The position numbers and the translations under genes were made by a program. DNA of 32,642 nt from a virus (taxonomy: Duplodnaviria > Heunggongvirae > Uroviricota > Caudoviricetes): the IMG/VR virus record IMGVR_UViG_2778261268_000005; one strand, written 5' to 3'. The notes under the pieces are model-generated. The model saw only the letters and a program-made list of their open reading frames with translations, searched no databases and was not told the origin of the DNA. Positions 13,484 through 15,561 of this stretch are shown piece after piece; position 1 is the first letter of the stretch; each line of letters opens with the position of its first letter.

Positions 13484-13595
13484 ATCCTTCACGGACTTAT
13501 GAAAACCGGACTTCACTTCCCAGCGATCAATTTCGCTCACCCCGTCAGGCGGAATGGACGTAACCGGATAAGGGTTCAGACATGCTTTTTCCTCC

Positions 13596-13624
13596 CACAA
13601 ATAAAAAAGGGCCGCCAGCGGCCC
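13596..13624 (-). terminator. intrinsic terminator (GGGCCG-CTGG-CGGCCC followed by TTTTTTATTT on the minus strand)
   Basis: Hairpin plus T-run read directly. Confidence 0.6.
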
Positions 13625-13708
13625 GTAAAAACACCCTGTCAAAGGCACCCGCAGATGCCTTTTGTGTGGTGTTATCTGATGTGATGTGCGCCGGGCGTGG
13701 CGCGGATA

Positions 13709-13775
13709 TGAAAAAGGCCCGCCGGAGCGAGCCATAAAAAACTGAATAAAAAAAAACCGCCAGGTGCGGCGGTTA
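13709..13775 (-). terminator. tandem pair of intrinsic terminators, copy A of a duplicated ~65 bp module
   Basis: Two hairpins each followed by a T-run on the minus strand; near-identical module at 14389-14453. Confidence 0.55.
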
Positions 13776-14029
13776 AGGATGTATTTCCGGGCTTGGCTTA
13801 GTATATGACCAATCACAGTTTTGTTTTTGTCGATGTTTACAACATCAGAATAATGCATTTAAAGTAGTAAAAATATTTGCTAATAATGCATTATTCCGAT
13901 GGTGTAAAAAATGGCACTGGAACCGCAACGAATATCACTCATTACAGAACAGGGGGCGCAAGGAACCATAAAAAACACCCTACATATATTATGTCAGTGC
14001 CTAACACAATCTCGCCTTAGTTACTGTTG

Positions 14030-14101
14030 AGCGGGCAGCGGGAATCGAACCCGCATCATCAGCTTGGAAGGCTAAGGTAATAGCCATTATACGATGCCCG
14101 C
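14030..14101 (-). tRNA. tRNA-Gly(UCC)-like; 3' end reads CAA, so CCA is not encoded
   Basis: Cloverleaf readable by eye: acceptor GCGGGCA/TGCCCGC, anticodon loop CTTCCAA, T-loop TTCGATT; closely resembles E. coli tRNA-Gly(UCC) as recalled. Confidence 0.7.
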
Positions 14102-14388
14102 ATACTGTGCTGGCCCCCGGAATAACACGAATTACCAAGAGAGCCCGCACTGGTCTTTCCGGTGGCAAACAGCACCCCTGCTAACATAAAAGATAAACAC
14201 CTTCCAGACGCAAAAATACTAACAACTGTTTTTCAGATATCCAAAATATATTTGGTTTTTATTTTTGAAAATATGTATACATATGTATCATAAATATACA
14301 AGCCATATCATAACCGAATTAAAAATCTTTAGTTATCTCTTTTGCCGTCTGATCACCACCCACCGGCAGCTGAGAATTCCGGCACACA

Positions 14389-14453
14389 ATGAAAAAGGCC
14401 CGCCAGGGCGAGCCATAAAAACTGAATAAAAAAACCGCCCGGGGCGGCGGCTA
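14389..14453 (-). terminator. tandem pair of intrinsic terminators, copy B of the duplicated module
   Basis: Same two-hairpin architecture and flanking sequence as copy A, with point differences. Confidence 0.55.
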
Positions 14454-14815
14454 AAACGATAAAAGGACACAATATTATAATGATTATTGGGTTTGGGGCA
14501 TCGGGTGCCTCCCGAAGTATTCCACTTTACGTGGATACTGTGGTTTCCCGCTAAACCGACTCTATAAACCACCCTCGCACTGAGGAACGCCCCAATTCAT
14601 GTTTTCCGACACAGAGATGGCGCATCACTGGTTACTCCACGCTAAATCCTGCTTCCTTTCGTGGGCAATGCGCCATTTCTGTGTCATAAAAAATACAGCA
14701 CTGAGTCTGTAACCGATCTCCATTACAGAATGAGGGACGATAAAGGTATTAAAGAGATCTGTTCCTCACGAAAACCGCCAGTGCTGTAAAAACTTGTCCA
14801 AAAAACAATGAAGTT

Positions 14816-14884
14816 GCGGAGAACAGGAATCGAACCGGCATTACCAACCTAAGGCTGATGTAATAACCACTATACGATACCTGC
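14816..14884 (-). pseudogene. tRNA-like element, probably a degenerate paralogue of the tRNA-Gly gene
   Basis: 5' half nearly identical to the Gly tRNA (GTATCGTATAGTGGTTATTAC) and a TTCGATTCC T-loop, but anticodon, T and acceptor stems do not pair properly. Confidence 0.4.
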
Positions 14885-15406
14885 ATATAGAGCAGGCCTC
14901 CGTAACCACAATAATGACACTGATACTGATAACAGCCCTTCATTATGATTAAACGGATGCCAGCAATGACCCGCAAGACAGCGGGTAACACCCCTGTGAA
15001 CAGAAACTTGCTGCCTTTCGGGTCGAGAGTAATATTACCGATAATTTATATGACATCAAAAACTAATTAGTTTTCATATTTAAACATATGTATAAATATG
15101 TATCAGACGCATACAATTTATGTTATTTCATCCAGACTTCTGATTTCTCACAGGAAATTGCGAAAAAAAAACAACATAAAAATGAACAAATTGGGAGTAC
15201 GCTAACTCCGTTGTCGCAATAAATCACAGTAAGCTCTTCAGAAATAACAGTTCACAAGACTTACATCAACAGTAGTTTTTGTAATGATTAATGTTAACTG
15301 TAGCGTTGAAAAGAAAAGTTTTGACGAAATATGGTGAACTAACAGAGCCTAACGAATAGCCCTATTACGCCGAGCTAATAGCGCTGCCAGCTAAACTTGC
15401 ATGGAA

Positions 15407-15483
15407 TGGTCCGCCACCGAGGACTCGAACCTCGCACAATCAACTTAGAAGGTTGATGCTCTATCCCGATGAGCTAGTGGCGG
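15407..15483 (-). tRNA. tRNA-Arg(UCU), CCA encoded
   Basis: Acceptor CCGCCAC/GTGGCGG, anticodon loop CTTCTAA (anticodon TCT), T-loop TTCGAGT, 3' ACCA. Confidence 0.8.
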
Positions 15484-15485
15484 AA

Positions 15486-15561
15486 TGGTGGCCCTTGCTG
15501 GATTTGAACCAGCGACCTGGCGATTATGAGTCGCTCGCTCTCACCACTGAGCTAAAGGGCC
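15486..15561 (-). tRNA. tRNA with CAU anticodon, ileX/ileZ-like (Ile2 if lysidine-modified, otherwise Met), CCA encoded
   Basis: GGCCCTTTAGCTCAGTGG...ACTCATAATCGC...GGTTCAAATCCAGCAAGGGCCACCA; closely resembles E. coli ileX as recalled; 2 nt from the Arg tRNA. Confidence 0.8.

Follow-up and report, generated by a model that had tools for sequence, protein, structure and literature searches.

Layout of the island

We analysed a 32,642-nucleotide stretch of phage DNA (the window), in which a non-coding island lies between a gene for a Q-like late antiterminator and the start codon of a holin gene (Table 1). The minus strand carries every feature of the island, which belongs to the late operon downstream of the antiterminator, annotated as a DUF1133 protein in RefSeq. 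By analogy with the layout of lambdoid late operons, the terminator-like hairpin in the gap between the Q-like gene and the next open reading frame (ORF) is a candidate tR'. At the other end of the island, only the start of the holin gene remains: relative to the near-identical prophage of RM11911, 7,722 bp are absent, and the junction shows an overlap of 7 nt (blastn). Judging by the gene content of the RM11911 prophage, the lost 7.7 kb held lysis and packaging genes. The deletion junction also adjoins the left end of the region singled out in an earlier note on this DNA. That note, which mentioned neither the junction nor the common strand, had described some 2 kb containing tRNA genes only, and the RefSeq annotation of the RM11911 prophage agrees, with no coding sequence in the island and three tRNAs alone between an ORF at 15702 and the holin.

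Table 1. Features of the island and its flanks, in the order in which they are read on the minus strand.
Feature	Position	Strand	Basis or detail
Q-like late antiterminator gene	16869..17411	-	PHROG 753 'anti-termination protein Q-like', E 1.3e-77
Candidate tR'	16565..16587	-	terminator-like hairpin in Q-to-ORF gap; 9-bp stem, then U7
tRNA-Ile2/Met (CAU), ileZ-type	15486..15561	-	ARAGORN; Rfam tRNA 72.5 bits (15489-15561); CCA encoded
tRNA-Arg (UCU), argN-type	15407..15483	-	ARAGORN; Rfam tRNA 57.8 bits (15410-15483); aligned with Stx-phage argN; CCA encoded
Decayed argO-like tRNA	~15322..15385	-	alignment to ileZ-argN-argO of Stx2a_F349
AT-rich element, copy B	15057..15116	-	palindromic core GATACATATTTATAC at 15090-15104; conserved in L002
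Predicted sigma-70 promoter, unit B	15032..15059	-	-35 TTGATG, 16-nt spacer, -10 TAATAT
Degenerate tRNA, glyT lineage	14815..14884	-	Rfam tRNA 31.8 bits (14815-14884); ARAGORN negative
Domain I, unit B	14697..14785	-	closing stem CAGCACUG/CAGUGCUG around inner hairpins, then U-run
Domain II, unit B	14603..14690	-	long hairpin, ~27 bp
Domain III	14492..14596	-	five-helix cloverleaf-shaped core; model R1 120.7 bits
AU-rich linker, domain III to terminator	14454..14491	-	position of PasD seed; UCCUUUUAUC common with PasD2
Double terminator, unit B	14389..14454	-	T1 14433-14452, T2 14397-14414
AT-rich element, copy A	14242..14301	-	core GATACATATGTATAC at 14275-14289; conserved in L003
Predicted sigma-70 promoter, unit A	14216..14243	-	-35 TGGATA, 16-nt spacer, -10 TAGTAT
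tRNA-Gly (UCC), glyT-like	14029..14101	-	ARAGORN; Rfam tRNA 61.6 bits (14030-14101)
Domain I, unit A	13913..14001	-	GGCACUG...CAGUGCC, then U-run
Domain II, unit A	13836..13908	-	inverted repeat, 92% complementary; apical part deleted relative to L003/L004
Double terminator, unit A	13708..13776	-	T1 13755-13774, T2 13716-13733
Third terminator hairpin (T3)	13609..13624	-	just upstream of holin start; conserved in L002-L004
Holin start codon (13584) and first codons	13559..13584	-	truncated at deletion junction 13559-13565

ARAGORN and Rfam agree with the earlier calls of three tRNA genes, Ile2/Met(CAU), Arg(UCU) and a Gly(UCC) without encoded CCA, the last being followed by CAAC instead. These three and a fourth, degenerate copy all exceed the Rfam gathering score of 29 bits for tRNA (RF00005). 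In the degenerate copy, the anticodon loop counts 5 nt, and the acceptor and T stems contain mismatches; by its loop, its stems and ARAGORN it does not qualify as a functional tRNA, whereas the other three do. It had been described as a tRNA-like remnant with a 5' half nearly identical to the Gly gene. The tRNA-like character and the kinship to glyT hold, but 'nearly identical' was an overstatement, because identity to the tRNA-Gly is 74% overall and ~82% in the 5' half.

The Ile2-Arg pair corresponds to ileZ-argN in the ileZ-argN-argO clusters of Stx phages, a comparison that the earlier note had proposed: identity is 92.5%, and both pairs are found at the same location downstream of Q. The first gene, named tRNA-Ile by RefSeq, is invariant in alignment with ileZ of Stx2a_F349. 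The window differs from the Stx phages in the anticodon of argN, UCU rather than UCG, and in its tRNA and sRNA cassettes, which stand where stx would follow. Where Stx-phage clusters have three intact tRNAs, ileZ and argN are intact here and argO is a remnant, its anticodon arm gone and its T loop shortened by a 3-nt deletion. Neither ARAGORN nor Rfam (E<=10) calls this argO-like remnant, which adds a second decayed tRNA that had previously been missed.

The tRNA-Gly resembles a gene of the host thrU-tyrU-glyT-thrT-tufB cluster, with 96% identity to K-12 glyT, and thrU of the same cluster has 98.7% identity to the tRNA-Thr found ahead of the tRNA-Gly in most related phages. The likeness to the host cluster is confined to the tRNA bodies; the flanks are not shared, and the phage copy lacks CCA.

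Two homologous units in tandem

Units A (downstream) and B (upstream) align along their whole length. Each comprises, in order, an AT-rich element, a tRNA or decayed tRNA, a trailer and a double terminator; the tRNA is decayed in unit B, and the trailer is truncated in unit A. This full-length homology had escaped the earlier note, which spoke of a duplicated, partly decayed promoter-tRNA-terminator unit. A tandem homologous pair with a decayed tRNA is indeed present, but the description was incomplete, and the spacers are not products of decay.

The AT-rich elements, 78% identical over 60 nt, each lie 5' (in the minus-strand sense) of a tRNA or tRNA-like element, as had been noted. The core of copy B stands ~72 nt and that of copy A ~73 nt upstream of the predicted start, and we speculate that these palindromes could play a UAS- or Fis-like role at the promoter. 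Of 94 distinct loci with related tRNA arrays, 12 have the strict palindrome ATAYRTAT upstream, where shuffled sequences give 5.3 +/- 2.1; with so modest an enrichment, we rejected it as a universal feature of such arrays. The putative sigma-70 promoters of both units are predicted from conservation alone: the hexamers and their 16-nt spacing are kept in four homologues (units A and B, L002 and L003). The hexamers agree with the consensus at 8 of 12 positions and are not among the promoter-scan reports. The leader between promoter and tRNA was considered as a decayed thrU and rejected, its local alignment being no better than those of shuffles.

The double-terminator modules, already recognised as a tandem-terminator module occurring twice, are 88% identical over 69 nt. 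Each unit has terminators of its own, T1 and T2; on the minus strand, these are hairpins (-11.6 to -14.6 kcal/mol) with U5-U9 after them. Between 13300 and 16600, the minus strand has 11 terminator-like sites and the plus strand none, compared with 3.6 +/- 2.0 in shuffles. A plus-strand mini-ORF found in each module, MKKARRSEP, was rejected because its reading frame differs in L004.

Conserved RNA structure in the trailers

The trailers contain domains I and II and, in unit B, domain III. Domain I was folded by minimum free energy and has a cloverleaf-like consensus in two subfamilies; in unit B, its closing stem is 98.6% paired across 21 sequences. Its derivation from sequence downstream of host glyT was rejected, the matches there being limited to the tRNA bodies. 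For domain II of unit B, 97.4% of cells are paired, both members have changed in 7 of its 24 pairs, and the z score is -4.8; the counterpart in unit A folds with -27.1 kcal/mol (z = -8.1).

Over domains I-III, 98.0% of cells are paired, against 38-55% when partners are slid. Pairs changed on both sides number 15, compared with 2-6 for slid partners and 8.4 +/- 1.9 for shuffled sequences, none of 500 shuffles reaching as high. The abundance of G-U pairs fixes the strand as that of the tRNAs, and it is on this tRNA-sense strand that the RNA structure has been under selection. The spacers had been called unexplained, with the suggestion that they could encode small RNAs or regulator-binding sites. 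They hold conserved structured RNA instead of decay and, judged from sequence and predicted folding, include a divergent core of the STnc100/PasD type, much as that suggestion had it.

Known sRNA families were rejected as candidates for the spacers: at E<=10, Rfam yields no meaningful match to domains I and II, and none to domain III from any family, tRNA included. Apparent matches to microRNA families reflect long hairpins only.

Domain III resembles the STnc100 and PasD core

Domain III spans 105 nt and, by a covariance model that we made from the window-type core (R1), has its sole copy in the window in unit B, being absent from unit A. Across related prophages and IncF plasmids, it is 98.9% paired, with compensatory changes in 18 of 27 pairs; covariation between loops, as in a pseudoknot, did not rise above noise. 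Its helix order and junction spacing are those of a class II tRNA.

The same five-helix core characterises STnc100 (RF02076): P1, P2 with an NGUGCG loop, P3, P4, and P5 of the form YCGGG-AGGCA-CCCGR, with the return strand of P1 directly abutting P5 and followed by an AU-rich linker and a Rho-independent terminator. Domain III has five helices, a P2 loop GUGCG and the P5 hairpin GGGAGGCACCC; on its 3' side follow the AU-rich linker and T1 with U7, and linker then T1 are found in every distinct downstream sequence examined. STnc100, a prophage-encoded sRNA known from Salmonella, E. coli and Stx phages, is likewise located in prophage late regions, often right behind tRNA genes and in some cases as tandem copies. 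The window core differs in having no promoter of its own directly upstream and in being fused behind a glyT-type tRNA and domains I and II, which STnc100 genes lack. No function has been established for STnc100 (PMC12370729).

PasD1 and PasD2 of EPEC E2348/69 (EcOnc13 in EHEC) lie between Q and the lysis genes, as the island does, and PasD1 is a sub-threshold relative of STnc100, with 37.7 bits against RF02076. PasD is Hfq-dependent and has targets identified by RIL-seq (PMC8550237); it pairs with them through the linker just 5' of the terminator, where its seed lies (PMC8550237 fig. S5). The window linker contains a motif also found in PasD2 (UCCUUUUAUC). Direct similarity to the Pas sRNAs was nevertheless rejected: by blastn there is only a 15-nt match of this linker to PasD2, the core itself shows no blastn-level similarity, and R1 gave no match to L125 or L127 at E<=1 when similarity to PasD was tested. 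Since the window, its linker included, lacks UGUGAG, the seed of PasD, no target can be proposed.

With RF02076, the region 14380-14610 scores 10.1 and 9.4 bits, against a gathering threshold of 47, which is why domain III goes unannotated. A weak Rfam match to the 3' end of STnc100 (19 bits) occurs in unit A at 13704-13817. Given the low RF02076 score and the short blastn match, the link to STnc100 and PasD rests on R1 and the shared architecture. When R1 was tested on STnc100 copies called by Rfam, all of them aligned with the model along its entire length (19.6-36.9 bits). Scanning genome contigs with the 16-mer TTCGGGRGGCACCCGA returned chance matches only, in unrelated GC-rich genomes; reused as a negative control, these loci reach <=22 bits with R1. 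We had at first concluded that domain III was an undescribed family and withdrew this because its distant relatives proved to be Rfam STnc100. On the evidence of the model and the architecture, domain III is a divergent homologue of the STnc100/PasD core.

Spread and possible roles of the cassette

Domain III occurs in 290 of 5426 E. coli genomes (~5% of complete genomes) and on 120 IncF plasmids, unannotated throughout. The whole cassette is found on IncF plasmids outside any phage context, which argues for a self-contained unit. Of 63 distinct sequences with domain III, nearly all have a tRNA 3' end ~300 nt upstream of P5. Differences in the linked tRNA concentrate in the anticodon loop, which carries UCC, UCU or UUU (the last in a loop of 9 nt) or is 5 nt long.

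In its architecture, the island is an ordinary moron, a mosaic assembled from known types of cargo within a crippled prophage, and not a new system. We consider the following account, taken as a whole, to be probable. The island is a cargo ('moron') segment of an E. coli prophage that is lambdoid, Rac-like and defective; within the late operon, it occupies the interval from the Q antiterminator gene to the former lysis cassette and is read from the minus strand. It carries rare-codon tRNAs, in the form of a Stx-phage-type ileZ-argN pair with a decayed argO, and two homologous non-coding cassettes in tandem, one of them STnc100/PasD-like. Each cassette would run from an AT-rich upstream element and a weak predicted sigma-70 promoter through a 110-140-nt leader to a glyT-derived tRNA; 3' of the tRNA would follow a structured trailer, an AU-rich linker and intrinsic terminators.

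In a lysogen, transcription of each cassette would start at the cassette's own promoter or arrive by read-through, and the trailer would be released via tRNA processing. Domain III, its linker and the U-tailed terminator would then act in the manner of PasD, as an Hfq-associated base-pairing sRNA, while the tRNAs would provide decoding of the rare codons AUA, AGA/AGG and GGA/GGG. The stacked terminators would shield the downstream lysis genes from constitutive transcription, and on induction the Q-modified polymerase would read through them. It counts against this insulation step that, in the window, the lysis genes to be insulated are already deleted.

Among the prophage sRNAs found in pathogenic E. 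coli and Salmonella, those of the STnc100/PasD type are some of the commonest, and the window reveals a divergent branch of them that current annotation has overlooked. The fusion of this branch to a glyT-type tRNA and two conserved structured domains extends the family and supplies seeds for a better covariance model. The cassette also offers a testable tie between phage tRNA cassettes and sRNA biogenesis via tRNA processing, and a case, tractable in E. coli, for the role of the conserved five-helix core. For the window itself, the result is mainly clarifying.

We regard it as unlikely that the glyT-linked cassette (~400-470 nt) is instead one mobile composite RNA with a role beyond Hfq-type pairing. 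The tRNA and domains I-III would here form a tRNA-shaped mimic, decoy or scaffold rather than a base-pairing sRNA, for example one directed against tRNA-targeting defence nucleases or toxins, or an RNase P-processed stable RNA like T4 RNAC/RNAD. If true, such a role would explain why the cassette is retained despite tRNA decay and has spread to conjugative IncF plasmids. The class II tRNA helix order of domain III, the cloverleaf shape of domain I and the variation of the linked tRNA mainly in its anticodon loop are in keeping with it. So are the stable RNAs, of no assigned role, that come immediately after a tRNA in T4 (PMC3014915) and GOLLD and ROOL near phage tRNA islands (PMC12286853), structured RNAs adjoining phage tRNA genes that offer a positional analogy only. 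The trailer shows no similarity to these or to tRNA models: at E<=10, Rfam has no match to GOLLD or ROOL, and homology to T4 rnaC/rnaD was rejected, R1 reaching <=8.2 bits on the T4 tRNA region, on a tRNA-Ser. Further weighing against a composite role are the lack of covarying loop-loop contacts and of a conserved protein partner nearby, and the occurrence of other STnc100 copies alone or arrayed, without domains I and II.

It is very improbable that the spacers are functionless wreckage of old tRNA genes and terminators, their structure inherited from tRNA ancestors. Decay is common at these loci, as seen in the argO remnant, the degenerate glyT copy, the truncated domain II of unit A with no domain III, and a decayed second copy of domain III in L189; domains I and III are, moreover, cloverleaf-shaped. 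Yet, among sequences below 95% identity, the trailer keeps 98-99% of its base-pair cells and shows numerous compensatory changes, and it outlasts a decayed tRNA both in the window and in L338. Domain III is also maintained across the genomes and 120 plasmids counted above, and its failure to match any Rfam family extends to tRNA.

Also very improbable is a cis-acting leader, akin to a riboswitch or attenuator, in which the trailer governs terminator read-through into a downstream gene. The holin gene in prophages and a DMT transporter gene on IncF plasmids would be its targets, both contexts having the order structured RNA, linker, T1 and same-strand gene, with a ribosome-binding site ~12 nt past the U-tract in pWY517IncF; but the folds contain no antiterminator pairing of domain III or linker with T1, so that a riboswitch expression platform was rejected, the linker is not conserved between subfamilies, many cassettes keep T1 without domain III, the downstream genes are unrelated, Q already gives read-through in prophages, and the PasD homologues are free-standing trans-acting sRNAs.

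Origin of the tandem pair

The tandem pair is probably not the outcome of a recent duplication in situ. Outside the terminators, units A and B are only ~61% identical, and each is found singly in another prophage, unit B in L002 and unit A in L003, which makes recombination between related cassettes the more likely origin. Most likely, the exchange took place at the common terminator ends; afterwards, one tRNA would have decayed and one trailer would have been truncated. At the position of the degenerate glyT-lineage copy of the window, L183 and L197 carry a valid tRNA-Arg(UCU).

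Setting of the island in the late operon

At 99.97% identity, the window matches a Rac-like lambdoid prophage of E. coli RM11911 that carries recE, recT, kilR, ydaT and hokD. Among 5426 complete E. coli genomes, only 4 have the whole island, and RefSeq gives zero CDS there, in agreement with the earlier note, which had described it as low-coding, with only tRNA genes. All island features and the flanking late-operon features are read from the minus strand, and their order, Q-like gene, hairpin, ORF, tRNAs and holin, identifies the island as the late operon's cargo slot; in Stx phages, the same slot holds ileZ-argN-argO and stx. 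Lambdoid cargo genes between Q and the lysis genes often bring their own promoter and terminator, and Q-modified polymerase passes intrinsic terminators. The Q-like gene and the next ORF are separated by 447 nt, the expected site of the late promoter and terminator (PR'/tR'), a region that gives the sRNA StxS in Stx phages. At the position of that ORF, related prophages carry a DNA methyltransferase or nothing.

Relative to the RM11911 prophage (L001), 7,722 bp are absent from the window (L001 7276-14997), with a 7-nt overlap at a junction (13559-13565) found in none of the 5426 complete genomes. Lost are the M15 endolysin, both terminase subunits, an Acb1-family protein gene (RefSeq annotation), several small genes and both holins, except for the first few codons of one; without holins, endolysin and terminase, the prophage can neither bring about lysis nor package DNA. 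At Rfam gathering level, the window also matches two type I antitoxin RNAs: sok (117.7 bits; 18901-19075, minus strand), adjoining the hokD position annotated in RM11911, and RalA (218.5 bits; 30908-31086, minus strand).

Features of the island and its flanks (window positions; units A and B are the downstream and upstream tandem cassettes)
Feature	Position	Strand	Basis or remark
Q-like antiterminator gene	16869-17411	-	PHROG 753, E 1.3e-77
Terminator-like hairpin	16587-16565	-	9-bp stem then U7; within gap 16422-16868
239-aa ORF, function unassigned	15702-16421	-	PHROG 1521; between Q region and tRNAs
tRNA-Ile2/Met(CAU)	15486-15561	-	ARAGORN and Rfam
tRNA-Arg(UCU)	15407-15483	-	ARAGORN and Rfam
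argO-like decayed tRNA	~15322-15385	-	Directly after tRNA-Arg; comparison with Stx2a_F349 argO
Predicted -35 / -10, unit B	15059-15054 / 15037-15032	-	Conservation
Degenerate tRNA remnant	14815-14884	-	Rfam tRNA 31.8 bits, just above 29-bit threshold
Domain I, unit B	14785-14697	-	Fold/alignment
Domain II, unit B	14690-14603	-	Fold/alignment
Domain III, unit B	14596-14492	-	R1 match
Predicted -35 / -10, unit A	14243-14238 / 14221-14216	-	Conservation
tRNA-Gly(UCC)	14029-14101	-	ARAGORN and Rfam
Domain I, unit A	14001-13913	-	Alignment
Domain II, unit A	13908-13836	-	Apical part lost
Holin gene start	13584	-	RefSeq annotation of RM11911 prophage

Two related tRNA cassettes

All three tRNA genes proposed in the earlier note were recovered by both search methods. 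The tRNA-Gly gene shares 96% identity with host glyT and, as had been noticed, has no encoded CCA, its 3' flank reading CAAC instead. The tRNA-like remnant is likewise detectable by Rfam, with a 5-nt anticodon loop and mismatched stems, and ARAGORN called no tRNA there; at 74% identity to the Gly gene, it is not the 'nearly identical' copy first described, the only wording in that sequence observation that did not hold. The argO-like element, absent from the earlier list, has lost its anticodon arm (an 11-nt deletion) and 3 nt of its T loop relative to argO of the Stx-phage reference Stx2a_F349; ETEC1749 carries the same remnant.

Units A (13700-14320) and B (14381-15135) can be aligned over their full length, with a common order of AT-rich element, TTGAT-N16-TANTAT motif, leader, tRNA, trailer and double terminator. 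Identity is ~61% over tRNA and leader, 78% over 60 nt of the two AT-rich elements and 88% in the terminator modules, each of which has two stable U-tailed hairpins (T1 and T2), so that both repeats reported earlier are borne out. Terminator-like sites occur in the island region at three times the shuffled frequency, all on the minus strand. The suggestion of a duplicated, partly decayed unit survives as an end-to-end homologous pair, which is probably not a recent in-situ duplication. In ETEC1749, unit B (87% identical) stands alone after Ile-Arg; in ETEC4073, unit A stands alone behind an AraC-type gene; and in ESC818, the unit-A trailer comes after a compact Ile-Arg-Thr-Gly array. Because each unit is found singly in other prophages, we read the tandem as a mosaic, the product of recombination that joined related cassettes, probably at the terminator ends they share.

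Upstream of the leader, four sequences (units A and B, and the prophages L002 and L003, which carry unit B or unit A alone) conserve TTGTAT, GATACAnATnnATAC, an A-tract, TTGAT(A/G), 16 nt and TA(A/G)TAT. The last two hexamers are predicted to be the -35 and -10 elements; they match 8 of 12 consensus positions, and a promoter scan did not report either. The palindromic core lies ~72-73 nt upstream of the predicted start. Stable-RNA promoters have Fis sites near -71, with a loose consensus of G-N13-C around an AT-rich centre, and the placement of the core would be compatible with an upstream activating site. Upstream of related arrays, the strict palindrome is modestly enriched (12 of 94, versus 5.3 ± 2.1 in shuffles).

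A conserved structured RNA follows the tRNA

We gathered 120 viral contigs with the same tRNA-Gly, which almost always closes its array (Thr-Gly, Met-Lys-Thr-Gly or Met-Arg-Thr-Gly); the tRNA-Thr of these arrays is 98.7% identical to host thrU. Of 96 distinct trailers, 39 conserve the sequence that follows tRNA-Gly, and at domain III loci the distance from the tRNA end to helix P5 is ~300 nt in almost every one of 63 distinct sequences. An RNAalifold consensus of 21 representatives (<95% identical) comprises three domains: domain I, in which a 7-bp closing stem, GGCACUG/CAGUGCC, encloses two or three hairpins and is followed by a U-run; domain II, a ~27-bp hairpin; and domain III, a five-helix fold of 105 nt. 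Domain I forms a cloverleaf-like junction in two subfamilies, with weaker internal support. In four Thr-Gly arrays (L025, L050, L055 and L058), a conserved leader hairpin, GGUUCCGA...UGAGGAACC, lies ~60 nt before tRNA-Thr, possibly a further structured element or a tRNA remnant.

Across the 21-sequence alignment of domains I-III, 98.0% of base-pair cells hold standard pairs, versus 38-55% when the 3' partners are slid, and double-sided changes occur in 15 pairs, versus 2-6 slid and 8.4 ± 1.9 shuffled (0 of 500 shuffles as high). On the opposite strand, the abundant G-U pairs would turn into A-C mismatches, which places the RNA in the tRNA sense. The cassette parts are homologous, and their RNA structure is under selection; the spacers, for which small RNAs had been suggested, are conserved structured RNA by these pair statistics. 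An R1 search of the window found no domain III in unit A.

Domain III and the STnc100 core

The helices of domain III follow the order P1, 2 nt, P2, P3, P4, P5 and the P1 return strand without spacers, similar in helix order and junction spacing to class II tRNA. R1, our covariance model of its core built from 32 sequences, finds a single copy in the window (120.7 bits) and scores 70-128 bits in relatives, versus ≤22 bits in 100 unrelated loci sharing a 16-mer by chance. Weaker full-length matches (23-33 bits) keep the five helices through many compensatory changes, with GGGAGGCACCCG invariant; adding them brings double-sided changes to 18 of 27 pairs and paired cells to 98.9%, in an alignment fitted to the model, which favours the structure.

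Searches of Rfam and, by sequence, of the literature returned nothing for domain III. A scan with the distant variant CCGGGAGGCACCCGGCAC reached >120 viral loci, many with 2-5 tandem copies just downstream of tRNA genes, which Rfam labels STnc100 (RF02076; 52-132 bits). We had considered an undescribed family, a reading dropped once these distant relatives proved to be Rfam-called STnc100. R1 aligns end to end to every Rfam-called copy tested, and the Rfam consensus shares P1, P2 (CCCCuGuGCGGaGGGG), P4, P5 (CCGGGAGGCACCCGG), the return strand, linker and terminator; on these alignments, domain III belongs to the STnc100 core as a divergent branch. The RF02076 model gives it only 10 bits, which accounts for its never being annotated in its carriers, which number 290 of 5426 E. 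coli genomes and 120 plasmids. Arrays of three to five STnc100 copies in tandem lie just downstream of tRNA genes in the viral contigs L352 (2265-3380), L413 (4349-5513 and 8357-8555, with an isrI match between copies) and L362; some loci of the window-type subfamily, such as L135 and L189, have two domain III copies.

All distinct downstream sequences examined have, after domain III, a ~40-nt AU-rich linker and T1 (ACCGCC...GGCGGU, U7-U9), and T2 is limited to a subset. The EPEC prophage sRNA PasD1 scores 37.7 bits with the STnc100 model, in agreement with the common origin of PasD and STnc100 proposed by Zhu, Shabalina and Storz (bioRxiv 10.64898/2026.05.13.724894). The sRNA PasD depends on Hfq, has targets known from RIL-seq and carries its seed in the linker, immediately before the terminator (PMC8550237); STnc100 function is still unclear (PMC12370729). 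The window linker has UCCUUUUAUC in common with PasD2 and lacks the PasD seed.

Proposed working of the cassettes

In a lysogen, the cassettes would be transcribed on their own or through read-through, and the tRNAs would decode AUA, AGA/AGG and GGA/GGG. The trailer may be freed by tRNA processing, leaving domain III, linker and T1 as a putative PasD-like, Hfq-associated sRNA, and the stacked terminators (five hairpins over ~850 nt) would shield the lysis genes from cassette transcription. That the trailer is instead a tRNA mimic or scaffold, as its shape and position would allow, seems improbable, with nothing else speaking for it. A cis-acting attenuator is unlikely: the folds do not show an alternative pairing, the linker is variable, and the genes that follow are not related to one another. 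Both the pair statistics and the survival of the trailer beside a decayed tRNA contradict pure decay.

T4 RNAC/RNAD and GOLLD/ROOL resemble the island in position only, and the island itself combines known types of prophage cargo in an ordinary mosaic. What is new is a divergent STnc100/PasD-type core that current annotation misses, the fusion of this core, by way of two additional conserved domains, to a glyT-type tRNA, and the spread of the tRNA-domain III cassette to IncF plasmids.

Plasmid spread and the variable tRNA

The cassette is mobile: it occurs on 120 PLSDB plasmids, all from Escherichia, of which 108 are conjugative. In the IncF plasmid pWY517IncF (NZ_CP076260.1; L339 4700-5240), a full cassette, with predicted promoter, glyT-lineage tRNA (UUU anticodon, 9-nt loop), domains I-III and T1, lies between an IS3-family fragment and, immediately downstream in this one plasmid type, a DMT-family transporter gene. 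In a second IncF type (L338 4950-5210), domains II and III and T1 alone remain, beside an IS. In the tRNA at the head of the cassette, the acceptor, D and T arms are retained, and the anticodon loop varies among relatives (L183/L197, L339 and the window), from Gly(UCC) and a valid Gly-lineage Arg(UCU) to the UUU loop of the plasmid and the 5-nt loop of the window remnant, variation that could reflect decay or selection.
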